From assembly GCA_965226555.1 (NCBI GenBank), contig CBDDDG010000017.1:1-13147 (forward strand): 13,147 nucleotides of DNA, given 5' to 3'. The notes beneath the pieces were generated by a model. The model saw nothing but the letters and a program-made list of their open reading frames with translations. It was not told where the DNA came from and did not search any database. Of this stretch, positions 1 to 13,147 are shown piece after piece; within the stretch, counting starts at the first letter, position 1, and each line of letters starts with the position of its first letter. The translations under genes were made by a program, and so were the position numbers. This stretch comes from Salinispira sp. (GTDB lineage: Bacteria; Spirochaetota; Spirochaetia; DSM-27196; Salinispiraceae).

Positions 1-2
1 GC

Positions 3-752
3 GACACCGACACGCGCTACAACCCCTCCGGCTATACCGCAGCGGGGGATCACAGAGACGATTTCACCACGCTTGACGCTGCCGGAAACAATGTCCCCAT
101 TGGTATCTGGTCAAATGAAACGACAATGTGGGTGGTAGATCACGATGACCAAAAAATCTATGCCTACAACCTGAGTACCAAGGCCCGCGATTCGTCAAAA
201 GACTTCAACACACTTTCTGCCTCGGGGAACATTGTTCCCGCAGGTATATGGTCCGATGGGACAACAATGTGGGTGGTAAGTATTAGTGGAAAAATTTATG
301 CCTACAACATGAGTGACACATCGTACAATCCCGATAAAGACTTCGACACGCTTTCTGATGTCGGAAATACATACCCCGCAGGTATATGGTCAGATAGAAC
401 AACAATGTGGGTGTCGGATATTACCGCTAAAAAAATCTATGCCTACAACATGAGTGACACGACACACGATTCATCGAACGATTTCACCACGCTTGAGGCT
501 GCCGGAAACGCCCCTTACGGTATTTGGTCAGATGGAACAACAATGTGGGTGGTAAATATTATCAATGACAAGCTCTATGCCTACAACCTGATTACCAAGG
601 CCCGCGATTCGTCAAAAGACTTTGACTCGCTTGCCGCTGCCGGGAATACATTCTCCTCAGGTATTTGGTCAGATGGAACAACACTGTGGGCGGCGGATAA
701 CAGAGAGGACAAAATTTATGCCTACAACCTGAGTACCCGAGCGCGCCCATAA
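3..752 (+). CDS. 3' part of a repeat protein with ~47-aa GIWSDGTTMWV...KIYAYN units (probable beta-propeller); 5' end outside window
   Basis: The frame is open from base 3 (DTDTRYNPSG...), upstream of the listed ATG at 126. Five repeats of DF-x-TL-x-AAGN-x-P-x-GIWS-D-x-TTMWV...KIYAYN-x-S; stop TAA at 750-752. Confidence 0.85.
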   Translation, partial: DTDTRYNPSGYTAAGDHRDDFTTLDAAGNNVPIGIWSNETTMWVVDHDDQKIYAYNLSTKARDSSKDFNTLSASGNIVPAGIWSDGTTMWVVSISGKIYAYNMSDTSYNPDKDFDTLSDVGNTYPAGIWSDRTTMWVSDITAKKIYAYNMSDTTHDSSNDFTTLEAAGNAPYGIWSDGTTMWVVNIINDKLYAYNLITKARDSSKDFDSLAAAGNTFSSGIWSDGTTLWAADNREDKIYAYNLSTRARP

Positions 753-760
753 CAGAGCGG

Positions 761-849
761 CTGCTCGCCATGCGTCTGTTGCTGAGACAGGGGCTGGTCG
801 GAGGCTTGCGCCTCCTGCTCGCCATGCACCTGTTGCTGAGACAGGGGCT
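761..849. repeat. GC-rich REP-like tandem repeat (54-bp unit plus 35-bp partial copy) between convergent genes
   Basis: CTGCTCGCCATGC(GT/AC)CTGTTGCTGAGACAGGGGCT occurs at 761 and 815, with internal hairpin GGAGGC-TTGC-GCCTCC. Its reverse complement matches 8499-8535 and 5811-5927. Confidence 0.8.
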
Positions 850-1858
850 AATCCCAGCGAAAGAGCATAGCCGATATCAGAAACATTACCGTTGTGAATA
901 CGGTAAGAAAAAGCATGTTTGGAAAAATTTGAGCAAGACCGGCGCCGTCAATTGTAATGGCGCGCACAGCCTCAAGAAAATGTGTAAGCGGAAATATACG
1001 TGAAACATTCTGTATGGCAGGCGGAGCGCTTTCGAGGCTGAAAAATGCTCCTGAAAGAAACATCATCGGCCAGGTAACCAAATTTATCAAACCGCCGCCG
1101 AGTTCCTCAGTTTTTATCCGGGTAGCAAACAACAGCCCCAGGGAAATAAGGCCGAATATACCAAGGGTGGTCACAAAAAGAAGATCGAATACACTTCCCT
1201 TTATGGAAGCTCCGAAGATGAGACTGGCGCCGATAAAGACCACCGAGGAAGAAAAAAGGGCAATAATAAAGCGCGATGTTGCCTGCGCGCAAATAAAGCT
1301 GAGCGCTGAAATGGGCGTTGCCCGCATGCGCTTGAGCACCCCGTTTCTCCGATATCTGATAATTATGAATCCAACACCGAGCAGGCAGCTAAACATCAGG
1401 TTCAGGGCGATAATTCCCGGTATCATCCAGTCAATATACCGCGCGCTTTCTCCGCTTATCCGGGACTCGGTAAGTGAAAGCGGAGAACTTGTTATGAGAA
1501 TTTTTACCAGCGCAGCATCGGGAGACTGATCATTAATATAATATTTGCCTGTCTCAAAGTTAATAAACATGCTGATCTGATGCTTGCGGAGAGCATCAAG
1601 GGCATCGTGCTCACTCTCCCCTTGCCGGGAATAATCCACATGATCAATTCCCGATGTTTCCAGAAGATAAAAGCCCGAGGGAACTTCACCAATGGTTCCC
1701 ACCGTGAATATGGTATTGTTATTGTTTCCAAAAATTGCCGTGAGCCCCGCTATCAACAGCAGAGGAAAGAATAAATTCCAGAAAAATGCCCCCCTGTCGC
1801 GGACAAATTCAAGGTTTCTGGCATGTACCATGGCAAAGAATGGTTTCAGCTTATTCAT
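848..1858 (-). CDS. ABC-2 type exporter permease
   Basis: 336 aa. N-terminal TM (RDRGAFFWNLFFPLLL), YIDWMIPGIIAL, RRNGVLKRMRATPIS, FLSGAFFSLE, PLTHFLEAVR; several C-terminal TMs; 8 bp downstream of the ABC ATPase. Confidence 0.93.
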   Translation of the reverse strand: MNKLKPFFAMVHARNLEFVRDRGAFFWNLFFPLLLIAGLTAIFGNNNNTIFTVGTIGEVPSGFYLLETSGIDHVDYSRQGESEHDALDALRKHQISMFINFETGKYYINDQSPDAALVKILITSSPLSLTESRISGESARYIDWMIPGIIALNLMFSCLLGVGFIIIRYRRNGVLKRMRATPISALSFICAQATSRFIIALFSSSVVFIGASLIFGASIKGSVFDLLFVTTLGIFGLISLGLLFATRIKTEELGGGLINLVTWPMMFLSGAFFSLESAPPAIQNVSRIFPLTHFLEAVRAITIDGAGLAQIFPNMLFLTVFTTVMFLISAMLFRWD

Positions 1859-1866
1859 ATTCTTCC

Positions 1867-2790
1867 TTATGTCCGCAGAGAAGACCCTGTAAGTTTTATG
1901 AAGAGGTCTTCTAAGTTTGGCTTGTGGATATTAAGATTGTTGATGACAATATCGGCGCTGAGAAGGGTTTTTATTGTTTTATCCAGATACGGAGTAACAA
2001 TTTCCAGTTCTTCTTCAGTAATCCGTACGTCTTCGTTATTTCCAAACTGTTCCTTCATTGCATGCGCTGTTTCTCTGGTGAAATTTTCATCCCAAGGGAG
2101 ATGAATGAGGGCGCCATCGAAATGATTTGTGAGGAGCTTTTCCGGAGTATCGCGCGCAATAATTTTTCCGTTATCCATAATGGCGACTTCATCGCAGAGT
2201 ATCTGGGCCTCGTCCATATAATGTGTGGTAAGAATGATGGTGCAGTTTTCGGCCTTAATGTTTTCTATGAGGTCCCAGAAATTCCTGCGCGATTGAGGAT
2301 CAAGCCCGGTTGTCGGCTCATCGAGGAAAATTATTTCAGGATAGGGAATGATTGCCAGCCCCAGCAACATCCGCTGCCGCTGACCGCCGGAGAGTTTTCG
2401 GTTATCACGATTGATAATATCTTCCAGCGAACACAGTCTGATAATTTCTTCATGCGGACGCGAATTTTCATAAAAACTGGAAAAGAGGTTCAGCGTTTCT
2501 TTCACGGTAATAAACTCAGGGAGGGCGCTCTGCTGGAACTGTATGCCGATTTTCTGCTTGTAGCTGCGGTCATTCGGCCAGGCTATCGGCTGGTTGCGGA
2601 ATAGCAGTGAACCATTGTCGGGTTTCTGAATGCCCTCCATTATCTCAATTGTCGTGGTCTTGCCGGCTCCGTTGGGACCGAGGAGACCAAAGCACATTCC
2701 CTCTGGTATATCCAAATCTATACCGCGAAGAGCCTCCACCTTCCCAAAATTTTTTTTCAACTCCCGAACTGTCAAGATTACATTATCCAC
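1867..2790 (-). CDS. ABC transporter ATP-binding protein (DrrA/CcmA-like)
   Basis: Walker A GPNGAGKT, signature LSGGQRQR, Walker B IIFLDEPT, H-loop TTHYM, C-terminal NLEDLFIKLTG; GTG start. Confidence 0.96.
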   Translation of the reverse strand: MDNVILTVRELKKNFGKVEALRGIDLDIPEGMCFGLLGPNGAGKTTTIEIMEGIQKPDNGSLLFRNQPIAWPNDRSYKQKIGIQFQQSALPEFITVKETLNLFSSFYENSRPHEEIIRLCSLEDIINRDNRKLSGGQRQRMLLGLAIIPYPEIIFLDEPTTGLDPQSRRNFWDLIENIKAENCTIILTTHYMDEAQILCDEVAIMDNGKIIARDTPEKLLTNHFDGALIHLPWDENFTRETAHAMKEQFGNNEDVRITEEELEIVTPYLDKTIKTLLSADIVINNLNIHKPNLEDLFIKLTGSSLRT

Positions 2791-2796
2791 TCAGCA

Positions 2797-2825
2797 ATAA
2801 TAGTGAAATTGATGGGAGATGTCAA
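2797..2825 (-). promoter_or_regulatory. sigma70-type promoter of the ABC operon, probably leaderless
   Basis: Minus strand reads TTGACA (2825-2820), 17 bp, TATTAT (2802-2797), 6 nt, GTG start. No SD sequence. Confidence 0.75.
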
Positions 2826-2940
2826 TAGCCTGCTGCGCATACGGCTGTTGTGGGGGCGGGACGGGGCTGGAGTCGGTTGGTCATATTTCGTGCCGGTTTC
2901 GCTGTGAATGCCTTCGGCCGCACTCAATTTTTTTCTGTTC

Positions 2941-2968
2941 TTGATTTTTTTATTTTGGATGATATAAT
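2941..2968 (+). promoter_or_regulatory. sigma70-type promoter (extended -10) of the lipoprotein-nnr operon
   Basis: TTGATT at 2941-2946, 16 bp, TATAAT at 2963-2968 preceded by TGn. Confidence 0.6.
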
Positions 2969-2989
2969 CAATACTAGTGTTAACGCCAT

Positions 2990-4195
2990 ATGTCGAAATT
3001 TCCCATTTATGCAGCAGTCTATCTGCTTTTTCTTACTATTTCATGTAACCGCTCAGCCGTTTCAGGCGAAGTTCTTCCAGGAGAATTTCTGTTTTCTCTG
3101 GATATCGGTGTACTTGAAAACGAAATTGATCTCTTCCACCGCGGCGGAACCCTCCCCGAAGAGCGAAACAGCGTTTTCATGTACCGCGGCATTATCTTCA
3201 TCGCCAATTCCCTCGGAAATAAAATCATGGAATTCTCATCCTATGGCGATCTGATATCACTCATATACAATGCCGAAGAAAACCCCCGTCCGCTCCTTCT
3301 TTCATCGAGCCCCCGCGAGGGAAACATTGTCAACAAGGCTGCCCATTCATTTCCGTTCAGAAACATTGGGGAAATTTCCGTTAGTTCGGAAAATGTTCTG
3401 CTGGTAGCCGATACCGCTGCCCCCGGTCAGGAAGGATTCGACCTTGAAACAGGCGCTGCATTCCAGCATATTATTCATCGGTTCACATCGGAGGGAGATT
3501 ATCTCGACTATATTGGTCAGGAAGGGGTAGGCGGTACCCCCTTTTCTTTCATTGTTTCAATGAATGTAACTGCCCGCAATGAGCTTGTTGTTCTTACCCG
3601 CAGCAGTCATTCATACACGGTATTCTGGTACAACAAGGAAGGTAAGCAGTTGTTTGAAGTTATGCTGGATGATGCGCATCTGCCCGCGGGTAAGACACCT
3701 GCCGATTTTCCGAACATTGCGGGGGTTTTCCCGGACACGGAAAAATACTGGCTCTATCTTCATATTAATTATGACAACAGTGAATCGAAAGGAGTTGATT
3801 CTTTGGTATATGTGCTTGATCTTTCGACAGAAAAATACAGCAGCAAATTTGAGCTCGATACTAATCGGCAGGCCCTGCCGAGTAATGAGGGTATGGACTA
3901 TGTCGATTATCCCTATCAGTTCATCGGAGTTGCTGAGGGGGGTAATCTTTTCTTCATCAGCCGTAACAGCGCTTTTGAACAATCGCTTGCTGTTTTCGAT
4001 TTTACCGGTGTTCTGAAAGTACGGCGCATACTGCGGGTGGAGAATCCTGATATATTCTTCAGCGACTATCAGGTATCGCTGGAGGGTATTATTACGGCGC
4101 TCATGAGTGATCCTGACAGTGCCGATGTTTACTGGTGGCGGACCGACAGGATTCTCGAACCTTTACGGACTGCTTCACGGAGGAGAGATTTGTGA
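2990..4195 (+). CDS. spirochaetal lipoprotein, LIC_12708-like family
   Basis: Signal peptide ends in lipobox LTISC. Motifs IFIANSLGNKIMEFSSYGDLISLIYN and YIGQEGVGGTPF are recalled from this spirochaete family (from memory, not searched). Confidence 0.7.
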   Translation: MSKFPIYAAVYLLFLTISCNRSAVSGEVLPGEFLFSLDIGVLENEIDLFHRGGTLPEERNSVFMYRGIIFIANSLGNKIMEFSSYGDLISLIYNAEENPRPLLLSSSPREGNIVNKAAHSFPFRNIGEISVSSENVLLVADTAAPGQEGFDLETGAAFQHIIHRFTSEGDYLDYIGQEGVGGTPFSFIVSMNVTARNELVVLTRSSHSYTVFWYNKEGKQLFEVMLDDAHLPAGKTPADFPNIAGVFPDTEKYWLYLHINYDNSESKGVDSLVYVLDLSTEKYSSKFELDTNRQALPSNEGMDYVDYPYQFIGVAEGGNLFFISRNSAFEQSLAVFDFTGVLKVRRILRVENPDIFFSDYQVSLEGIITALMSDPDSADVYWWRTDRILEPLRTASRRRDL

Positions 4196-5739
4196 ATTAT
4201 GCCATAGATACCCATCGCATGAGGGCCTTTGACGCTCAGGCAACCGAGATCATTCCCGAAATGATCCTCATGGAGAACGCCGGCCGGCTTATTGCCGAAC
4301 ACATTATACGGGATTTCCGCGCTTCCCATCTGAAAACACTCCTTATTCTGGCCGGAACCGGTCATAACGGCGGCGATGCCCTTGTTGCGGCCCGGCATCT
4401 GAACAATGAAGGAATACCAACACGGATTTTTCTGGTCAACAGAAAACTCAAACCCCTCACGCAAACGATGCTTGAAACCCTCGATAGCCATTTGAGCACC
4501 GTTTCTGCGCTTTCTGAAACCGGCCCCAATGAACTCATAGCTTTCCTCAAACACAAACACTGCGTCGTTGTCGATGGCGTACTCGGCTCAGGAATACGCC
4601 GCCCAATTTCAGACAGTACCCTTCTGACGGTTATTGAGCACTGGAATCGGAGTGCAGCATTTCGTTACGCGATAGATGTACCGAGCGGTATTTCTGACAT
4701 TGCTGAATCGGAAGAACCAACCCCCGTATTCTTCCATGCCAACTGCACCCTTGCGATCCAGTTTTCCCGTACGGCGCTCTACGGTAACCTGAGAGAATAC
4801 TGCGGAAACATCCGGCATTTGGAAATTGGATTTCCCGCGGCGCTTCTGCGCAGGTACACGGAAGCTCAGCAGGAACATGGACTCATCCCCCTGCTTGAAA
4901 CAGAAGATCTGCCGGAACGTATTCCGCCGATACCTGCGGGTGCACACAAGGGAAAACGAGGGAAGGTTGAGATATTTGCGGGGAGCCGGGGAATGGAGGG
5001 AGCCGCAGTGCTTGCTGCGCGGGCAACCCTGCACAGCGGGGCGGGCATGGTGCGTATCGACTGCCAAAGTGAATCAATCATTGACGAAGTTCTGAATCAG
5101 GAAGCGGCAATCATGGCAGATACGGAAACAAAGCCGGGCTCTTGGGGCAGCTGCCTGCTCGCGGGTCCGGGCTGGGGAAGGCAGACGCAGAAAACACGCG
5201 AGGTGATGATGGAACTCATACAGAGTAATCTCCCGCTTGTTGTTGATGCCGATGGTTTTCGGAATCTCAAAGCACTGTATGATGCGGGGGGCAACGCATT
5301 TCGGAACAATCTGCGCAAGCGCAACGCGGCGCTTGTGCTCACCCCCCACCCTGGAGAGGCTGCTTTTCTCCTTGAAGATGCTATAGAGGAAGTGCTCTGT
5401 CGTCCGCTGCGGTCTGTACAGCGTATCGCGGAACGGTACCATGCCTATGTTGTTCTGAAAAACTCAGTAAACCATATGAGCACCCCGCAGGGAAGGGTCT
5501 GCATCCACGACAGCCGCCTGCCTGCTCTCGGTACGGCGGGAAGCGGTGATGTTCTCGTTGGAATTATCGCAGGTCTGCTTGCGCGGGGGGTGGATGCCGA
5601 CAATGCGGTATCTGCTGCTGTTATTCTTCACGCGGGAGCGGGGAGACGCTGCTTTCTGAACCGCGGATGGTTTACGGCAAGTCAGCTCCTTGAAACACTC
5701 TCAACATTAGCCGGTGAAATTCAGTATATGAATAATTAA
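4192..5739 (+). CDS. nnr: bifunctional NAD(P)H-hydrate epimerase/dehydratase (YjeF/Nnr)
   Basis: YjeF_N motifs LMENAG, GTGHNGGD, VDGVLGSG, IDVPSG. Carbohydrate-kinase motifs HKGKRG, GPGWG, VVDADG, LTPHPGE, GTAGSGDVL. Likely GTG start at 4192 overlaps the upstream TGA; SD GGAGGAG at 4179-4185. Confidence 0.95.
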   Translation: MNYAIDTHRMRAFDAQATEIIPEMILMENAGRLIAEHIIRDFRASHLKTLLILAGTGHNGGDALVAARHLNNEGIPTRIFLVNRKLKPLTQTMLETLDSHLSTVSALSETGPNELIAFLKHKHCVVVDGVLGSGIRRPISDSTLLTVIEHWNRSAAFRYAIDVPSGISDIAESEEPTPVFFHANCTLAIQFSRTALYGNLREYCGNIRHLEIGFPAALLRRYTEAQQEHGLIPLLETEDLPERIPPIPAGAHKGKRGKVEIFAGSRGMEGAAVLAARATLHSGAGMVRIDCQSESIIDEVLNQEAAIMADTETKPGSWGSCLLAGPGWGRQTQKTREVMMELIQSNLPLVVDADGFRNLKALYDAGGNAFRNNLRKRNAALVLTPHPGEAAFLLEDAIEEVLCRPLRSVQRIAERYHAYVVLKNSVNHMSTPQGRVCIHDSRLPALGTAGSGDVLVGIIAGLLARGVDADNAVSAAVILHAGAGRRCFLNRGWFTASQLLETLSTLAGEIQYMNN

Positions 5740-5756
5740 AAGGCAAAGTGCCCCCT

Positions 5757-5940
5757 CCGCATGGGCGAGCCGGATGCCCGGGCGAGCAACGCTGAAGCGC
5801 GACCAGCCCGGACGCATGGCGCTCAGCGCCGACCGCCGACCAGCCCATAGCCCCAGCAACAGACGCATGGCGCGCAGCGCCGACCGCCGACCAGCCCATA
5901 GCCCCAGCAACAGACGCATGGCGCGCAGGCCAAGCGGCGA
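5757..5940. repeat. GC-rich REP-like cluster with a 51-bp tandem unit (2.3 copies) between convergent genes
   Basis: GACGCATGGCGC(T/G)CAGCGCCGACCGCCGACCAGCCCATAGCCCCAGCAACA at 5811 and 5862, partial at 5913. Shares GCATGG, GGCGAGCA and CGACCAGCCC motifs with 761-849, 8494-8535 and 10369-10420. Confidence 0.8.
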
Positions 5941-5943
5941 TAA

Positions 5944-6219
5944 TTAATGCGATCCGTTCCGCACTGTCCGCATTTCCTCATCGCTCAGCCCGGTAACATC
6001 CTGAATGTCATGGGCTGAAAATCCTTTGGAAAACATACTGCGGGCGTTTTTTCTCCGCTCCTCAATATGCCCCTCAACCCGGCCTTTCAGAATGCCTTTC
6101 TCCATTCCTTTTGCAATGCCTTTCTCCATTCCTTTCAGAATGCCCTTCTCCATTCCCTCAATCCGGCCCTTCGCAATGCCTTCCCTGACGAAGGCGTTGG
6201 TAATATTATATGTCCGCAT
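5944..6219 (-). CDS. putative internally initiated small C-terminal protein (RpnS-like antitoxin), 91 aa
   Basis: GGAGGAG (6234-6228), 8 nt, ATG (6219), in frame within the rpn gene: MRTYNITNAFVREG...GSH. Confidence 0.62.
   Translation of the reverse strand: MRTYNITNAFVREGIAKGRIEGMEKGILKGMEKGIAKGMEKGILKGRVEGHIEERRKNARSMFSKGFSAHDIQDVTGLSDEEMRTVRNGSH
6061..6180 (-). repeat. 12-bp coding tandem repeat (10 x G-x-x-x)
   Basis: GIAK GRIE GMEK GILK GMEK GIAK GMEK GILK GRVE GHIE; the paralogue at 10539-10646 has 9 units. Confidence 0.85.
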
Positions 6220-6720
6220 ACTGTTTTCTCCTCCAGGGAACAGTTCCCTGTCAATTTTCTCAAACTGTTCATACAGTCCCAGATCTTTTAGATAGCCTAG
6301 CACACTCTCTGCCAGATCAGTAAAGTCTTGTGAAGACAGACCGTTCAGGAGCTGCGCAATTTCTTTCAGCCCCTCAGCATCCATTTCATTGTCTCGCATT
6401 ATATACCACAACGCAGTCGATGTATATCGTTTTCCATCGAAACGCCATGCCAACTGATTCTTTGTCATTCGCCCCAGATCGCGCACAATGTACGACACTC
6501 TCGCCCTGACATCTACCGTTCCTTCGGTAAGGGATTCGGAAGCTGGATTTCCATGAGAACTGTAAAATGTGAGTGGGAGGTTCCATTCCTTTTTTCCATG
6601 GTAGAGCAGAAGTATATAGATAGCATCATTTTCATTGTACACATTGCTGTTTCTGAGGGCATATTGATAATTATCGATTTGAGTGAGCGCATGTTTGTGC
6701 TGGTAGCTTTTATGTTCAAT

Positions 6721-6849
6721 ACGAAAGTTTTGCTACTGGAAATTGTGCTTGCACAATTTTCCAAGGCAAAACTTTCTATACCGTGAGAGAATCAAGAGTA
6801 TAGATGAGAGAATCCTCATTGGAAAATTTTGCTCCGCAAAATTTTCAGT
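6721..6849. mobile_element. hairpin element E1, type I, 129 bp
   Basis: Absent from the paralogue (11311-11322 TTCAAT|AATAAA). Ends ACGAAAGTTTTGC...GCAAAATTTTCAGT; nested palindromes. Confidence 0.9.
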
Positions 6850-7224
6850 AATGAACAGGGACTTCCGGTCGGGGTCTGACAGGAAGGGGGCGCTGACAAC
6901 GAGATCGCAGTGAAGGTTCTTTTTTCCTGCAATGTAGCTGGGGGTTTCAATGCGGATTTTGCCCAGGTCCAGCTTGGCAAGCGTTGTATCCTCACAGAAG
7001 AGCCGCAGCAGGTCGGGAATCAGCCGGGGGGTTCTGTAGTAGGCGATCTTGAAGGCTATGTCGTGGATGTGGCATTTGCTCTGGGATGATTTTTTCATAT
7101 TGTTTCCCTCCTATATCTGTGACGGGTAAAAAGTCATTTTTAACTGTGTTTTTGAAAAGAATTTGAAAGAATGTTGTGTTTTTTTCGGGGAGTCGGGAGG
7201 GAGGGATCGGGAATGGGGGCTGGT

Positions 7225-7254
7225 ATGCTCTGTGTCGATATACTTTTTGCTCAT
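7225..7254 (-). pseudogene. 10-codon remnant of a third type-B rpn 5' end
   Basis: Reads MSKKYIDTEH versus MSGKYIGMVH, directly behind a copy of the type-B leader. Confidence 0.6.
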
Positions 7255-7334
7255 ACTATATAGACGGGTAAAATATAAACGGTGTATGACAAAATGAGAA
7301 ATTTTTGTAATTATTTTTATTATTTTGGGATATT
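7249..7334 (-). repeat. type-B rpn leader/promoter, copy 1 of 3
   Basis: 86 bp, near-identical to 8271-8356 and 10147-10232. Confidence 0.88.
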
Positions 7335-7390
7335 ACAAAGTTTTGCTACTGAAAATTGTGCAAGCACAATTTTCCAATGCAAAAGTTTGT
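7335..7390. mobile_element. hairpin element E2, 56-bp collapsed form
   Basis: ACAAAGTTTTGC-TACTGAAAATTGTGC-AA-GCACAATTTTCCAAT-GCAAAAGTTTGT; same flanks as E4. Confidence 0.85.
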
Positions 7391-7421
7391 ACTATTTGAC
7401 CTGACCCCGGCGCGGGGCACG

Positions 7422-8276
7422 CTGAAATAATTTCTTTGTTTCATCCCTCGTTATCTTACCATCAAACCTCTTTATTATCCATTCACAGAAAATTGTGCTC
7501 TGCACAATTTTCCAATGAGGGTTCTCTCATCTATATTCTTGATTCTCTCCAGGTATAGAAAGTTTTGCTACTGGAAATTGCGCACGCGCAATTTTCCAAT
7601 GCAAAACTTTGTCATATAATACATCGCTATTTTCGGACATCTTATTCTGTATCATATTGTTGAGTATGGCGATTGTTTCTTCTGTGTATTCTTCTATTGT
7701 TCCAAGATTCTCAATATACATTATTGCAGAAATGACTCCGCCTGCGGAGATCAGTTCCTTGTTGCTGAAATTCTCAACGTTGATCTGAAAATAGGGGGAT
7801 ATACAAATGCCTAAGTAAAGATATGATGAAAAATCTATTTTGCGGGGGTCAGAATTTGTCATTGGCGCTCCGGAGCAGGTGTATATGACAAGGGTGATTA
7901 TCCGGTAATCGGATTTCTTCTTTCCCGATGAGGAAATGCGTTCGGATAAGTGCTGGGCGTATGTGTATATTCTCCCGGGCATGGTGTTATCCACTGTCGA
8001 CTGAAACTCAATGATAAAGTAGACATCGAGCGGTTTCAGTTTCCGCGCGCTATCTTTGAAACGGCATGTGGTTTTGTAAATGACATCGGAGATGGAATGC
8101 CTGAGTTCGCCTTTGTGGATAAATTCAGGGTTGATGCTCAGCATACTCTCGGGAACAATGCTCCGCGCGAGGTCCTTGTTGAAATATGAGTATATGAAAT
8201 CCCTGAATATCAGGGGATTTTCAAAAACATATTTCCAGCTTTGGTCGTGTACCATTCCGATATATTTTCCGCTCAT
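7422..8276 (-). pseudogene. Rpn-like nuclease type B copy 1: catalytic domain intact, one element, C-terminus deleted
   Basis: HDQSWKYVFENP, SDVIYK, YFIIEFQST, ITLVIY. The ORF runs into E3 and stops at 7527. The gene resumes as EWIIKRFDG...KLFQ, then lacks 238 bp relative to copy 2. Confidence 0.88.
7485..7613. mobile_element. hairpin element E3, type I, 129 bp
   Basis: ACAGAAAATTGTGC...GCAAAACTTTGTC; removal joins VLY|EWIIK in frame. Confidence 0.88.
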
Positions 8277-8356
8277 ACTATATAGACGGGTAAAATATAA
8301 ACGGTGTATGACAAAATGAGAAATTTTTGTAATTATTTTTATTATTTTGAGATATT
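8271..8356 (-). promoter_or_regulatory. type-B rpn leader, copy 2, with possible promoter
   Basis: Minus strand TTCTCA (8322-8317), 17 bp, TATATT (8299-8294), with A-tracts upstream. No SD before ATG 8276. Confidence 0.5.
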
Positions 8357-8593
8357 ACAAAGTTTTGCTACTGAAAATTGTGCTCTGCACAATTTTTCAA
8401 TAAGGATTCTCTATTCTTGATTCTTGATTCTCTCAAGGTATAGAAACTTTCTATAAAATAGGAGAATGCTAAGCACAAAGAAAGCATTCCTGACGGACGC
8501 ATGGGCGAGCAGGAGGCGCAGCCTCCGACCAGCCCTCGGAAACTTTTGCTACTGGAAATTGTGCAAGCACAATTTTCCAATGCAAAAGTTTGT
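8357..8593. mobile_element. composite hairpin element E4, 237 bp (type II containing a partial type I and a 42-bp GC-rich REP unit)
   Basis: ACAAAGTTTTGC...GCAAAAGTTTGT; GAATGCT...AGCATTC hairpin module; REP unit at 8494-8535. Confidence 0.85.
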
Positions 8594-8640
8594 ACTATTT
8601 GACCTGACCCCGGCGCGGGGCACGCTGAAGTAATGCGCTG

Positions 8641-8838
8641 CTACGCTTCGCCGTTTTTCTGAAATGATCGAATTTCATCTTCGCTGAGCTCGGTGTACTC
8701 ATGAATACGGTCTATTGGCAGACCATCCCTGAGCATTTTGAATACCTGCTTACGCTGGGTCCGAGCAATTTCACGCTGGTTCTGAGCTTGTCCCTGCTCA
8801 AGTCCTGCCCGCCATGGCTTATCTAAAAGATCTACCAT
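8641..8838 (-). CDS. putative internally initiated small C-terminal protein (RpnS-like), 65 aa
   Basis: GAGGAGGT (8853-8846), 7 nt, ATG (8838): MVDLLDKPWRAGLEQG...IHEYTELSEDEIRSFQKNGEA. Confidence 0.65.
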   Translation of the reverse strand: MVDLLDKPWRAGLEQGQAQNQREIARTQRKQVFKMLRDGLPIDRIHEYTELSEDEIRSFQKNGEA

Positions 8839-8925
8839 ACGTTTTACCTCCTCAGGATTTTCCTGAAATAATTTCTTTGTTTCATCCCTCGTTATCTTAC
8901 CATCAAACCTCTTTATTATCCATTC

Positions 8926-9054
8926 ACAGAAAATTTTGCTCTGCACAATTTTTCAATAAGGATTCTCTCATCCATATTCTTGATTCTCTCAAGGTATAGA
9001 AAGTTTTGCTACTGGAAATTGCGCACGCGCAATTTTCCAATGCAAAACTTTGTC
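8926..9054. mobile_element. hairpin element E5, type I, 129 bp, same site as E3
   Basis: Same junctions as E3; several internal substitutions; three in-frame TGA. Confidence 0.88.
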
Positions 9055-9216
9055 ATATAATACATCGCTATTTTCGGGAATCTTATTCTGTATCATATTG
9101 TTGAGTATGGCGATTGTTTCTTCTGTGTATTCTTCTATTGTTCCAAGATTCTCAATATACATTATTGCAGAAATAACCCCGCCGACAGCCTTCAGTTCAT
9201 CGTTGCTGAAATTCTC

Positions 9217-9318
9217 ACTGAAAATTTTGCTCTGCAAAATTTTCCAATGAGCTTTCTCTCATCTATATTCTTGATTCTCTCAAGGTATAGAAAGTTTTGC
9301 ATTCTGCAAAACTTTGGT
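9217..9318. mobile_element. hairpin element E6, type I, 102 bp
   Basis: Absent from copy 1 (ATTCTC|AACGTTG). ACTGAAAATTTTGC...GCAAAACTTTGGT. Confidence 0.9.
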
Positions 9319-9450
9319 AACGTTGATCTGAAAATAGGGGGATATACAAATGCCTAAGTAAAGATATGATGAAAAATCTATTTTGCGGGGGTCAGAATTG
9401 ATCATTGGCGCTCCGGAGCAGGTGTATATGACAAGGGTGATTATCCGGTA

Positions 9451-9552
9451 ACTGAAAATTTTGCTCTGCAAAATTTTCCAATGAGCTTTCTCTCATCTAT
9501 ACTCTTGATTCTCTCAAGGTATAGAAAGTTTTGCCTGAGGCAAAACTTTATT
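9451..9552. mobile_element. hairpin element E7, type I, 102 bp
   Basis: Absent from copy 1 (CCGGTA|ATCGG). ACTGAAAATTTTGC...GCAAAACTTTATT. Confidence 0.9.
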
Positions 9553-9657
9553 ATCGGTTTTATTCTTCCCCGATGAGGAAATGCGTTCGGATAAGCGCTG
9601 GGCGTATGTGTATATTCTCCCGGGCATGGTGTTATCCACTGTCGACTGAAACTCAAT

Positions 9658-9888
9658 ACAAAACTTTTGCATTGGAAAATTGCGCGTGCGCAATTTCCAG
9701 TAGCAAAAGTTTCAGATTCGAAATGCTTTCTTTGTGCTTAGCATTCTCCTATTTTTAGAAAGTTTTGCCACTGAAAAATTGTGCTCTGCACAATTTTCCA
9801 ATGAGGGTTCTCTCATCTATATTCTTGATTCTCTCCAGGTATAGAAAGTTTTGCCTCAGGCAAAACTTTGTTGTGGCAAAACTTTGGT
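9658..9888. mobile_element. composite element E8, 231 bp: 129-bp type II with a 102-bp type I nested at 9770-9871
   Basis: Absent from copy 1 (CTCAAT|GATAAA). Removing 9770-9871 restores GAAAGTTTTGC-CTGTG-GCAAAACTTTG, the same hairpin as in E10. Confidence 0.9.
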
Positions 9889-10146
9889 GATAAAGTAGAC
9901 ATCGAGCGGTTTTAGTTTCCGCGCGCTATCTTTGAAACGGCATGTGGTTTTGTAAATGACATCGGAGATGGAATGCCTGAGTTCGCCTTTGTGGATAAAT
10001 TCAGGGTTGATTCTCAGCATACTCCCGGGAACAATGCTCCGCGCGAGGTCCTTGTTGAAATATGAGTATATGAAATCCCTGAATATCTGGGGATTTTCAA
10101 AAACATATTTCCAGCTTTGGTCGTGTACCATTCCGATATATTTTCC

Positions 10147-10232
10147 GCTCATACTATATAGACGGGTAAAATATGAACGGTGTATGACAAAATGAGAAAT
10201 TTTTGTAATTATTTTTATTATTTTGGGATATT
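10147..10232 (-). repeat. type-B rpn leader, copy 3
   Basis: Near-identical to 7249-7334 and 8271-8356; the putative -10 reads CATATT here. Confidence 0.85.
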
Positions 10233-10368
10233 ACAAAGTTTTGCTACTGAAAATTGTGCTCTGCACAATTTTCCAATGAGGGTTCTCTCATCTCTATTCT
10301 TGATTCTCTCAAGGTATAGAAACTTCTATAAAATAGGAGAATGCTAAGCACAAAGAAAGCATTCCTGA
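10233..10368. mobile_element. element E9, left part of an E4-like composite, fused to a GC-rich REP cluster
   Basis: Colinear with 8357-8493 up to GCATTCCTGAC; the right-hand hairpin is missing. Confidence 0.8.
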
Positions 10369-10420
10369 CCGGTCGCATGGCGAACCGGATGCGCTTGGGC
10401 GAGCAGGCCGAGCAGCGCCA
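10369..10420. repeat. GC-rich REP-like sequence downstream of rpn A2
   Basis: GCATGGCGAACCGGATGC...GGGCGAGCAGGCC resembles 5759-5788 joined to 5925-5940. Confidence 0.65.
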
Positions 10421-10421
10421 A

Positions 10422-10685
10422 TTACTGCGATCCGTTCCGCACTGTCCGCATTTCCTCATCGCTCAGCCCCGTAATTCTCTGAACAGCCTTGGTCGACAAC
10501 CCTTCCAAAAACATACTGCGGGCGTTTTTTCTCCGCTCCTCAATATGCCCCTCAGCACGACCTGTTCGCAGTCCTTTCAGAATGCCCTCAGCCCGGCCCT
10601 TTGTGATACCCTGCTCAAGACCCTCAATCCGGCCCTTCGCAATGCCTTCTCTGACAAAGGCGTTGGTAATATTATATGTCCGCAT
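10422..10685 (-). CDS. putative small C-terminal protein (RpnS-like), 87 aa
   Basis: AGGAG (10698-10694), 8 nt, ATG (10685): MRTYNITNAFVREG...GSQ. Confidence 0.6.
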   Translation of the reverse strand: MRTYNITNAFVREGIAKGRIEGLEQGITKGRAEGILKGLRTGRAEGHIEERRKNARSMFLEGLSTKAVQRITGLSDEEMRTVRNGSQ

Positions 10686-10698
10686 ACTGTTTTCTCCT

Positions 10699-10828
10699 AC
10701 TGAAACTTTTGCATTGGAAAATTGTGCAGAGCACAATTTCCAGTAGCAAAAGTTTCACATTTGGCAGGCCTCGTTGCGCTTGGCATTCTCTCATTTTGCA
10801 GAAAGTTTTGCCTGTGGCAAAACTTTGT
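10699..10828. mobile_element. hairpin element E10, type II, 130 bp
   Basis: Absent from copy 1 (TTTTCTCCT|CCAGGG). ACTGAAACTTTTGC...GCAAAACTTTGT, with a diverged central module. Confidence 0.88.
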
Positions 10829-11383
10829 CTAGGGAACAGTTCCCTGTCAATTTTCTCAAACTGTTCATACAGTCCCAAGTCCTTCAGGTAACCCAGCACA
10901 CTTTCTGCCAGATCAGTAAAGTCTTGTGAAGACAAACCGTTCAGGAGCTGCGCAATCTCTTTCAGCCCCTCAGCATCCATTTCATTGTCTCGCATTATAT
11001 ACCACAACGCAGTCGATGTATATCGTTTTCCATCGAAACGCCATGCCAACTGCCTCTTGTCCATTCGCCTCAGATCGCGCACAATGTACGATACTCTCGC
11101 CCTGACATCTACCGTGCCTTCGGTAAGGGATTCGGAAGCAGCATTTCCATGCGAACTATAAAATGTGAGTGGGAGGTTCCATTCCTTTTTTCCATGGTAG
11201 AGCAGCAGTATATAGATAGCATCATTTTCATTGTACACATTGCTGTTTCTGAGGGCATGCTGATAATTATCGATCTGTGCGAGAGCCTGTTTGTGCTGGT
11301 AGCTTTTATGTTCAATAATAAAAAGAGCTTTCCGCTCGGGGTCAGACAGGAAGGGGGCGCTGACAACGAGATCGCAGTGAAGG

Positions 11384-12447
11384 TGGGATATAAACCTTTG
11401 GACAGACCCCTCCTCCCCAGTGTAAAACGAAGGTTATTCGTATACACTGGGGGTTGTATAAAACATAAAAGGAGGGAAACAGTGAACAGTAGTATCACAT
11501 ATTCTCAGTATCATCTCAAGTCTCGGAAGTATCAGGCGGCTTCGATGTATGATTGGCGGTTGCGGATGGTTCGGTATGCCCAGGAGCATTCGATCAAGGC
11601 GGCTGCTCGGGAGTTCGAGGTGTCGCGCAACACGGTGCGGCGGTGGGTTCGGCGCTTTGAATCCGGCGAGGGGCTTGAAGACAAAAAGCGGGGCACGACC
11701 AATCATCCGATGAAGATGAAATTCGGGCACCGGTGTCATCTCGAGAGTCTTGTCCAGACCAAGAATCGGAATCACAACAAAATCATTGGAACTCAGGTGC
11801 AAAAGCAGTTGCAGACGGAAGTTGGCGGGAAGTACAGCCTGCCGACGATTATCAAGACGCTAAAGCAGATAGGGGCGCAGAAAACAAAGAAGCCGAAGGC
11901 GCTACCCAAGAGAGATTTGCGGGAGGTAACCGACAGGATGAAGTTTGGCGAGTGCATTCAGATTGATATCAAGTATCTGACGGACATTCCCGCTATGCGG
12001 TTTTCTCAGAAGTGTTTAGACGTTCCGAAGTACCAGATAACTGCCCGGGATCGGGCGACAGGGGCTCTGTGGTACGCCTTTGCCAATGAGAAGAGCAGTA
12101 TGGTAACAACCTTGTTCGCCGAGTACCTGCTGGAGCACCTGCGGAATCATGACGGAGACCTTGCCAAGGACATAACGGTTCAGACCGATAACGGGGCAGA
12201 GTTCACCGTTCGACATCTGAGCAAAACCCGAACATCGGGGTTTGAGCAGGCGCTCATACAGGCGGGTGTCGAGTATCGGCGTATTCCGCCCGGGCATTGC
12301 ACATGGAACAGTTCTGTCGAGTCCTCGCACCGGCTCATTGAGGATGAGTTCTACAGTCAGGTGATGAATCCAAAGCTCAATGAGTTTCTTAAGGAAGCCG
12401 AGGAGTATCAGATAGATTTCGATGTGGGAGGGCGAATTCAACCATAA
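11384..12447 (+). mobile_element. IS481-like insertion sequence, probably truncated on the right
   Basis: Begins where rpn homology stops. Leader hairpin CCCCAGTGTA...TACACTGGGG at ~11416-11453. No convincing matching right IR, and the rpn 5' part does not resume after it. Confidence 0.65.
11482..12447 (+). CDS. DDE transposase (HTH + rve integrase core), IS481-like, 321 aa
   Basis: SD AGGAGG at 11470-11475, GTG at 11482. HTH IKAAAREFEVSRNTVRRWVRRF; catalytic QIDIKY, QTDNGAEF and NSSVESSHRLIEDEFY. Confidence 0.88.
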   Translation: MNSSITYSQYHLKSRKYQAASMYDWRLRMVRYAQEHSIKAAAREFEVSRNTVRRWVRRFESGEGLEDKKRGTTNHPMKMKFGHRCHLESLVQTKNRNHNKIIGTQVQKQLQTEVGGKYSLPTIIKTLKQIGAQKTKKPKALPKRDLREVTDRMKFGECIQIDIKYLTDIPAMRFSQKCLDVPKYQITARDRATGALWYAFANEKSSMVTTLFAEYLLEHLRNHDGDLAKDITVQTDNGAEFTVRHLSKTRTSGFEQALIQAGVEYRRIPPGHCTWNSSVESSHRLIEDEFYSQVMNPKLNEFLKEAEEYQIDFDVGGRIQP

Positions 12448-12498
12448 GTGTAGCACATCTATTCCCTCGCCGATTCAAAATTCGTACAAAATTCACTT

Positions 12499-12557
12499 CC
12501 AGAAACCTTTGCATTGGAAAATTGTGCTCTGCAAAATTTCCAGTAGCACAATTTATA
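12499..12557. mobile_element. hairpin element E11, ~55-60 bp, degenerate, boundaries approximate
   Basis: GAAACCTTTGC-ATTGGAAAATTGTGC-TCT-GCAAAATTTCCAGTA-GCACAATTT; it supplies the TAA stop of the 12553-12792 gene. Confidence 0.75.
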
Positions 12558-12792
12558 TGCGATTTCTCTGGAAATTCTCTATAGACTTCATGAGGGATTG
12601 AATGTCTTTGCTCTGCTCCTGTATAACTTTTTTCAATTCCTGAATGTCGATTTGCAGGGATGTGACATCGTGCTTCATTACCGGTTCTTCGTCGCACTGG
12701 GCAATGACATTTACCAGCGCTTCCGATTGTTGGGAAGAAAAGCCGTTTTCAAGCAGTTTTTTTGATGCTTTTAAGGTATCAATCATAATCAT
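12553..12792 (-). CDS. small coiled-coil protein, DUF1640/CCDC90-like, probably truncated by E11
   Basis: N-terminus IDTLKASKKLLENGFSSQQSEALV fits the family pattern, followed by heptads (LQIDIQELKKVIQEQSKDIQSL). Confidence 0.65.
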   Translation of the reverse strand: MIMIDTLKASKKLLENGFSSQQSEALVNVIAQCDEEPVMKHDVTSLQIDIQELKKVIQEQSKDIQSLMKSIENFQRNRI

Positions 12793-12842
12793 AATTTATG
12801 TATACAAAATTCGGGAATGATTATCAATAGGAATCGTGTCAT

Positions 12843-12871
12843 TTGTGAACTGCGCTGAAATACGGTATATT
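12843..12871 (+). promoter_or_regulatory. possible leaderless promoter of the PBP gene
   Basis: TTGTGA, 17 bp, TATATT, 7 nt, ATG 12879; no SD. Confidence 0.45.
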
Positions 12872-12878
12872 TCAGGCA

Positions 12879-13147
12879 ATGAATAGCCCGAAACTCAACC
12901 GCCGCATGTACTATGTTATCATCTTTCTTGGTATTTTTGCCGCCGGCATTATCCTGCATTTCGGAAACATCATGCTCAGCGCCGATCCGCCGCAGCCGGC
13001 AACCATAACGGCAGAGGTTGAGCGCGGCCCCATACTCGACAGAAACGGACGCCTGCTTGCCATACAGTCCGAACTCCCGACCGTTACCGTCTGGAATCCC
13101 GATGTGGAGGACAGAGAAAAACTTGCCGGAACACTTGCCCAAATACT
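12879..13147 (+). CDS. 5' part of a class B penicillin-binding protein (FtsI/PBP2-like); runs off window, not in the ORF track
   Basis: MNSPKLNRRMYYVIIFLGIFAAGIILHFGNIML... gives one TM anchor, followed by the dimerisation-domain motif ERGPILDRNGRLLA. Confidence 0.88.
   Translation, partial: MNSPKLNRRMYYVIIFLGIFAAGIILHFGNIMLSADPPQPATITAEVERGPILDRNGRLLAIQSELPTVTVWNPDVEDREKLAGTLAQI

Follow-up and report, generated by a model that had tools for sequence, protein, structure and literature searches.

The window analysed here, the whole 13,147-nt contig C17 (CBDDDG010000017.1) of a Salinispira sp. assembly, carries four genes of the Rpn nuclease family (PF04754) that are interrupted by short palindromic inserts. 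These inserts are MITEs (miniature inverted-repeat transposable elements): they are short and multi-copy, carry terminal inverted repeats, are flanked by a target duplication of fixed length, and have a partner with matching ends in the same genome. The array is probably best explained by an IS5-type MITE family within an expanded, recombining Rpn family, in which genes are knocked out reversibly by gene conversion and not by splicing or programmed excision. A first-pass annotation of the window had offered two readings, an intron-like or programmed excisable switch and a very active non-autonomous element piling into dispensable toxin genes; the second was supported, the element being an IS5-type MITE. 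The assembly comprises 2.98 Mb in 26 contigs, is 93.5% complete and shows 6.67% contamination, and all comparisons were made on assembled contigs, not raw reads.

MITE-related sequence was present at 563 merged loci, a count that includes fragments and a few matches to a second repeat, and 132 of these loci lay in rpn genes. The elements are modular and non-coding, with stops in frame and with cores of 26-27, 54, 97-98 and 123-127 bp in addition to nested forms. Each end is a hairpin, and both ends begin [G/C]AAA[G/C]TTTTGC or GAAAATT[G/T]TGC. When elements were delimited by their terminal inverted repeats (169 elements with both ends, at 97 distinct intact sites), a perfect 5-bp duplication was found at 34 of the 97 sites compared with 1.2 by shuffled pairing, with no duplication signal at any other length from 2 to 10 and with the target consensus C-TANTA-G. 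Solo hairpins of 25-27 bp consist of two terminal repeats and are thus minimal MITEs; they occupied 30 sites, 12 of which showed a perfect 5-bp duplication. The palindromic nature of the inserts was confirmed by folding, as five of them gave strong DNA hairpins (z -6.0 to -8.2) and two exon controls of the same length did not (z +2.5 and -1.3). A rule that all inserts are multiples of three was rejected, many sites elsewhere carrying 103, 130 or 131 bp, and blunt insertion with fixed AC...GT ends was rejected as a family-wide rule after the cores had been delimited. The MITE was found in none of 40 related genomes, and one exact pattern each gave no match in metagenome or viral contigs; outside the host there was one record in genome_contigs. 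This record (L032) is a contig in a metagenome-assembled genome (MAG) labelled Anderseniella, which carries the same 126-bp element with a GAATA duplication together with a GC-rich repeat and is possibly mis-binned.

A resident IS5-family element of 1340 bp, present in about ten copies (NF033581, 228 bits; cut-off 140), is most likely the enzyme source that mobilises the MITE in trans, as judged from its ends and duplications. Its terminal repeat GAAACCTTTGCA shares 11 of 12 terminal bases with that of the MITE, GAAACTTTTGCA, and a perfect 5-bp duplication was seen at five of six full-length copies. The nearest named relative is ISAba23 (46% identity), which itself begins GAAACCTTTGCA and has TAATA on both sides. 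Elements of the ISAba23 type thus resemble the MITE in terminal repeat and 5-bp AT-rich duplication, whereas the MITE lacks a transposase and its duplication is eroded in rpn genes. Among three IS5 families compared with the MITE ends, one matched best; a second, which also makes a 5-bp duplication, is a weaker candidate mover. The IS481-like, IS3, IS1182 and IS982-like elements and one further multi-copy element were rejected as movers, as their ends differ from those of the MITE. In the 93.5% complete assembly, no Y1 transposase was detected with PF01797 (control positive in 6 of 14), and neither an IS110 transposase nor a reverse transcriptase (RVT_1) was found. IS200/IS605 PATEs, REP/RAYT systems and IStrons depend on a Y1 HUH enzyme and insert without duplicating their target. 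They have hairpin ends and apparently clean empty sites in common with the inserts, but the 5-bp duplication contradicts a PATE or REP identity, and no Y1 gene was found. MITEs also interrupt two other IS5-family transposase genes (L012 and L014), one of which has three filled and three empty copies.

The features of the array and its right flank are listed below by window position.

5944 to 7098, minus strand: rpn family A copy A1, an RpnL toxin frame of 341 aa with the insert discounted
5944 to 6219, minus strand: RpnS-like internal open reading frame (ORF) of A1, 91 aa, with a GGAG site and 4-aa repeats and no insert inside
6398 to 6426, minus strand: promoter-like site inside A1, candidate RpnS promoter (10/12 consensus, consensus match only)
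6721 to 6849: MITE at site A248 in A1, a 124-bp core (6723-6846) plus an eroded 5-bp duplication
7336 to 7389: 54-bp MITE upstream of A1, flanks TATTA and TACTA
7422 to 8276, minus strand: rpn family B copy B1, 3'-truncated and without RpnS (PF04754, 36.8 bits; cut-off 21)
7485 to 7613: MITE at site B660 in B1, flanked by TCACA and TCATA, with its core at 7488-7611
8358 to 8488: truncated composite MITE upstream of B1
8539 to 8592: 54-bp MITE downstream of B2
8641 to 10152, minus strand: rpn family B copy B2, 315 aa with four inserts discounted
8641 to 8838: RpnS-like ORF of B2
8926 to 9054: MITE at site B660 in B2, 124-bp core plus 5 bp
9217 to 9318: MITE at site B497 in B2, 97-bp core plus 5 bp
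9451 to 9552: MITE at site B362 in B2, 97-bp core plus 5 bp
9658 to 9888: MITE at site B258 in B2, 129 bp, holding a nested 102-bp element (9770-9871)
10234 to 10363: truncated composite MITE upstream of B2
10422 to 11384, minus strand: rpn family A copy A2, 5'-truncated by an IS481-like element
10422 to 10685: RpnS-like ORF of A2, intact
10699 to 10828: MITE at site A735 in A2, 126-bp core (10702-10827) plus 4 bp, immediately 5' of the RpnS ribosome-binding site
10994 to 11022: the same promoter-like site in A2 (consensus match only)
11385 to 12423, plus strand: IS481-like element, 3' end missing (NF033577, E 5e-30, below cut-off)
12502 to 12554: short MITE whose first 12 bases equal the terminal repeat of the IS5 partner (GAAACCTTTGCA)

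Exact removal opened the frames of A1 and B2 as had been proposed: A1 without 6721-6849 reads through 341 aa, and B2 without 8926-9054, 9217-9318, 9451-9552 and 9658-9888 forms one frame of 315 aa. This did not extend to the other two genes. B1 ends after 242 codons, the last ~70 codons including RpnS being gone, and A2 begins at codon ~61, its first ~60 codons having been cut off at 11384 by the IS481-like element (24 related ORFs in the genome). Two of the four window genes are therefore dead even after removal, because they are truncated. Empty paralogous sites exist, as the first-pass annotation had noticed, but it had misread their anatomy as free of any footprint: the piece to remove is the core bounded by terminal inverted repeats plus one copy of the 5-bp target duplication, with core plus 5 bp at most sites and plus 4 or 3 bp at a few. 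Of the inserts, first described as 102-231 bp long, the 231-bp one is composite, a 129-bp element with another of 102 bp nested inside it. The housekeeping stretch (1-5739) was indeed free of inserts. In A1, the A248 MITE lies directly 5' of the codon for the catalytic-type E85 and brings in one in-frame stop; this site was filled in 14 copies and empty in 48. A1 has the catalytic-type residues D13, D65 and E85-x-K87, and its 3' part matched TIGR01784 with an E of 1e-7, below the cut-off. Upstream of family-A genes (7236-7361, 8258-8383 and 10134-10259), a decayed 5' end of a family-B gene stands together with a MITE, and this module recurs before many family-A copies.

The Rpn family is greatly expanded in this genome, with 70 PF04754 matches compared with 0-6 in 30 relatives and rpn loci numbering well over 100. 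Every rpn copy in the window is interrupted, but this does not hold genome-wide: 79 rpn-family ORFs of at least 290 aa, according to our own gene calls, are uninterrupted and fall in six families, and 33 of the 64 near-full family-A copies are free of inserts, the other 31 carrying one to four. The PF04754 domain and the catalytic D, D and E-x-Q/K residues are present, with K at the Q position in family A, whose intact copies pass the PF04754 cut-off. The catalytic residues of RpnA are D11, D63, E82 and Q84 according to the accessible part of PMC5350276. Several uninterrupted family-A copies share a variant with Ala for the catalytic-type Asp65, which may be another way of silencing RpnL. The rpn genes here also have an internal ribosome-binding site and start codon before variable 4-aa repeats, and copies of the RpnS-like repeat part differ by indels in multiples of 12 bp. 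In E. coli, the antitoxin RpnS has its start within the rpn gene, and RpnL alone is strongly selected against (PMC10400941, accessible part). The gene-within-gene systems described there resemble those found here: they have PD-(D/E)XK-type residues, a ribosome-binding site and start inside the gene, variable 4-aa repeats, RpnS copies that stand alone, and tandem arrays. By analogy with E. coli, we infer that RpnL toxicity would be blocked by RpnS and that the pair would act in phage defence.

Inserts in family A sit at only five positions, in mosaic combinations. Over five rpn families, 18 in-gene positions were mapped, 17 of which were kept as independent sites because one looks like a second occurrence, in another family, of the A248 element; about 17 insertion events have thus yielded ~130 copies. 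The RpnS part holds none of the 18 positions; four of them are 45 nt or less upstream of the RpnS start. Depending on the target model, the chance probability of this sparing was 0.003, 0.011 (5-bp model) or 0.10 (AT-rich model). If the protein roles are those of E. coli Rpn, an insert would knock out the RpnL toxin and spare the RpnS antitoxin.

We then examined where inserts are tolerated. When each of the 169 intact elements was taken out, a long frame was regained in 57 cases, of which 54 were in rpn genes and the others in one other IS5 transposase, at one folC 3' end and in one rpn fragment. Outside rpn, 37 two-sided candidates were intergenic, terminal, in transposases or in frame. Event density was 17 sites in 147 kb of RpnL sequence and 69 in 320 kb of intergenic DNA, with a handful in 2.4 Mb of other coding DNA. 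Single-copy genes carried inserts only in frame or at their ends: an ATPase-like gene at C10:426692 reads through a 126-bp element in frame, and an MGH1-like glycoside hydrolase (L015:273-1628, C10:38700) remains in frame across a 26-bp mini-hairpin that aligns to an 11-residue gap in TTHA0978. A gene at C18:35224-36672, which we take to be folC-like from its motifs, runs into a 54-bp element, which thus encodes about 24 new residues at the C-terminus.

Such a distribution bears on whether the inserts are spliced or skipped by ribosomes so that full-length nuclease is made, a possibility that we consider very unlikely. A genome-wide check revealed no single-copy gene with an out-of-frame insert inside it, which argues against splicing, because a spliced element would not need to avoid such genes. 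The exact restoration of frames, the strong structure of the inserts and the presence at 17 of 17 sites, read in mRNA orientation, of a G close to the 3' end would agree with removal from RNA, but no Rfam intron match came near the gathering score and no reverse transcriptase was found, and 54-130 nt is too small for group I or II intron cores. A self-splicing intron or IStron identity was rejected on these grounds and on the intolerance of out-of-frame insertion. In the bypass element of T4 gene 60, a stop codon directly follows the take-off codon. In the five window inserts, the first stop comes 10-38 codons in and not at the junction, and a translational bypass element was rejected. Furthermore, inserts cluster in the same copies: 33 of 60 copies had none versus 24.6 expected (p 1e-4), with a variance ratio of 1.75 that was matched by 2.5% of frequency-matched sets of single-nucleotide polymorphisms (SNPs), as expected if the first insert kills the toxin.

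This clustering in already-hit copies, together with the target duplication and the matching transposase, also speaks against a programmed excisable switch, as does the breakage of rpn copies by the IS481-like element and by the autonomous IS5 element; the latter lies inside a family-B copy (C10:404476-405817, L018) with a perfect ACGTA duplication. What stands of the switch idea is that insert state flips precisely at the DNA level between alleles and paralogues. Excision elements of the skin and nifD type have a dedicated site-specific recombinase and a fixed recombination core, whereas here the junction bases differ between sites.

These flips occur in a family that is shuffled in very short tracts: r2 between SNPs is 0.36 at 1-2 bp and has dropped to background at about 20 bp. 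Insert state was unlinked to SNPs at every distance (at 6-10 bp, r2 0.008 versus 0.139). Each site holds one element subtype (diversity 0.018-0.037), so that the filled copies at a site share an origin, and their flanks are as diverse as those of empty copies. In close pairs, differences within 25 bp of discordant sites were enriched in all three families compared (0.048 vs 0.029, 0.052 vs 0.037 and 0.089 vs 0.027). In the C10 allele of A2, the A735 site is empty with three SNPs adjoining, and small indels are also present. Copies on C13 and C16, which share synteny for kilobases on both sides, differ at 581 and 677 with accompanying SNP clusters, and a nested element was gained or lost precisely between C10 and C18. 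Two empty copies carry a filled-type left flank at A248. Among the contigs of four sequencing runs, one skips the B660 insert; empty paralogues explain it equally well, and it was set aside. The mosaic and the precise flips are observed, and templated exchange by gene conversion is the most likely mechanism for them. Loss of repair genes was not indicated as a cause of the mosaic, the mutS, recA and mutL frames all being open. Rpn proteins promote RecA-independent recombination (PMC5350276, accessible part), and such recombination is a candidate contributor to the exchange.

It had also been noticed that A1/A2 differences are often synonymous. The counts agree (21 synonymous and 9 non-synonymous codons), but they show no post-insertion selection, because 56 of the 60 codon states that differ between A1 and A2 were also found in intact copies and B1 differs from B2 by 3 synonymous to 15 non-synonymous changes.

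Several observations weigh against IS5 transposition followed by gene conversion. In the C13 and C16 copies, the first ~500 coding bases match exactly, but the inserts at 248 and 304 distinguish the two and no SNP flanks them. Faster decay of interrupted copies was not clear-cut: lesions were seen in 18 of 58 filled copies (in three of these rows, what was scored is an alignment artefact or an in-frame indel that is shared) and in 15 of 81 empty ones (p 0.11). Private substitutions in clean filled copies were 15 synonymous to 17 non-synonymous, like those of intact copies (31:35), and this synonymous share is above the neutral 25-28%; lesioned copies showed 9:22, all of these numbers being small. 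A perfect duplication was found at only 1 of 17 rpn sites, as against 17 of 29 for long elements elsewhere (p 4e-4). Two bases beyond the TTTC end there is a G at 16 of 18 rpn ends but at 21 of 109 ends elsewhere (p 2e-8). In addition, 15 of 17 in-rpn inserts face the same way (p 5e-4), and about ten rpn sites hold an intact copy of one subtype that occurs intact about once in the rest of the genome. The sparing of RpnS weakens to p 0.10 with the AT-rich target model, and assembly mosaics are possible.

The lack of decay is equally predicted by young insert states and by conversion from functional donors, and periodic reactivation is also compatible with it. The eroded duplication, the flanking G and the orientation bias are not predicted by simple IS5 transposition. 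Outward junction sequence was common to different rpn sites beyond chance (p 0.005). Candidate explanations for the in-rpn peculiarities are templating (from 277 internal copies that share the context, or from other in-gene junctions), survival of copies that the transposase can no longer excise, those excised having been repaired from empty paralogues, and selection on an outward promoter-like motif. An older cohort of elements in rpn was not supported, between-site identity being similar in and outside rpn (0.86-0.88), and intergenic copies were oriented 12 versus 5 relative to transcription, a small count.

The same observations would fit a selected, reversible DNA switch, in which a dedicated route (a break made by the transposase or by Rpn, followed by template switching) inserts and removes the in-gene subtype precisely and the interrupted copies form a stored toxin repertoire that is periodically switched back on. 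We judge this unlikely. Gain or loss without flanking change in C13/C16 and of the nested element in C10/C18, the independence of insert state from haplotype even at 6-10 bp, and the purifying-type private substitutions in filled copies all count in its favour, as do the convergent junction bases (AC...NGT ends), the orientation bias, the subtype almost confined to rpn, the shared outward junctions and the filled-type left flank of two empty A248 copies. The recombination promoted by Rpn (PMC5350276, accessible part) is a further point in its favour. However, most discordant sites in close pairs show co-conversion, and heterologies that stop conversion tracts would by themselves unlink inserts from their flanks. 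A single gene would need up to four or five removals, truncation affects half of the window's interrupted genes as well, and the 79 intact genes lessen the need for a silent reserve; the assembly, 93.5% complete, yielded no gene for a Y1 or IS110 transposase or for a reverse transcriptase. In a stronger version, which looks unlikely, a co-opted MITE subtype would keep more than 100 anti-phage nucleases under a removable lock. That subtype would enter rpn by some means other than ordinary IS5 transposition (in view of the shared AC...NGT junctions, the fixed orientation and the position upstream of the antitoxin in every case), would leave the antitoxin expressed and would be removed precisely, and the population would thus hold silent but intact toxin alleles that could be reactivated.

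It is also possible, with a low probability, that the MITEs are real but that the fine mosaic and allele differences arose in part during assembly or polishing, the MAG being multi-strain and having more than 100 similar genes. Several haplotypes were co-assembled, and allelic contigs are present: window positions 10392-13147 and 2925-5741 are allelic to C10:212278-215220 (about 99%) and C9:231-3055 (93%). The contamination of 6.67%, the small indels in the C10 allele of A2 and the use of contigs as sole data are consistent with artefact. On the other hand, multi-copy IS ORFs are mostly intact and near-identical, the variants are codon-biased and shared in consistent states, and the C13/C16 synteny extends over kilobases on both sides. 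On C9, quite different genes follow the same NAD(P)H-hydrate repair gene, and therefore the rpn array is strain-variable.

Under the favoured explanation, MITE transposition with gene conversion, the IS5 transposase would move MITEs in trans into C-TANTA-G-like targets anywhere, and inserts would survive only where they are harmless, namely in intergenic DNA, within transposase genes of other elements, at gene ends or where the reading frame is kept, and in the part of rpn that encodes only the toxin. Insertion would knock out RpnL and leave the internally started RpnS. About 17 such events would then have given rise to many copies, mixed and lost between paralogues through duplication and gene conversion in short tracts, which would also keep interrupted frames looking fresh, and the knock-out would be reversible at the population time scale.

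Known bacterial MITEs (RUP, Correia/NEMIS, ERIC/RU-1 and RPE), as described in the accessible part of PMC2229807, are likewise short and non-coding, with terminal inverted repeats, a target duplication and hundreds of copies, and they too are mostly intergenic, form in-frame or terminal gene fusions and insert into transposase genes. They differ in a TA duplication and an association with IS630, in contrast to the 5-bp TANTA-type duplication and IS5-type ends found here; further differences here are the hairpin at each end, solo units down to 26-27 bp, and the 132 of 563 loci in one gene family. The fine-scale mosaics and the interruption of rpn by MITEs are not reported in the accessible part of PMC10400941, and our literature search, whose coverage left out most subscription papers and supplements, found no MITE-interrupted rpn arrays. 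Silent-cassette conversion is familiar from vlsE, tprK and pilS, in which many similar copies swap short tracts and inactive copies serve as donors. Unlike these systems, rpn has no single expression site, exchange looks multidirectional and silencing is by a MITE.

Two other repeats lie in the window. Positions 3-752 encode a repeat protein with units of roughly 46 residues and a WSDGTTMWV motif, with about 41 related ORFs genome-wide. Positions 5809-5934 belong to a second, GC-rich repeat family of 51-bp tandem units, which borders rpn modules in the window and at other places.

For bacterial MITEs the autonomous partner is rarely pinned down; here a likely one is identified from matching ends and duplication, down to 26-bp units. 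The array points to a very large toxin-antitoxin family that would be tuned by inserts removing the toxin and sparing the antitoxin, reversibly through exchange between paralogues. Linkage decay within about 20 bp across 60 paralogues offers a natural test bed for Rpn-driven recombination, and the precise flips, if driven by an enzyme and selected, would represent a new type of bacterial gene switch.

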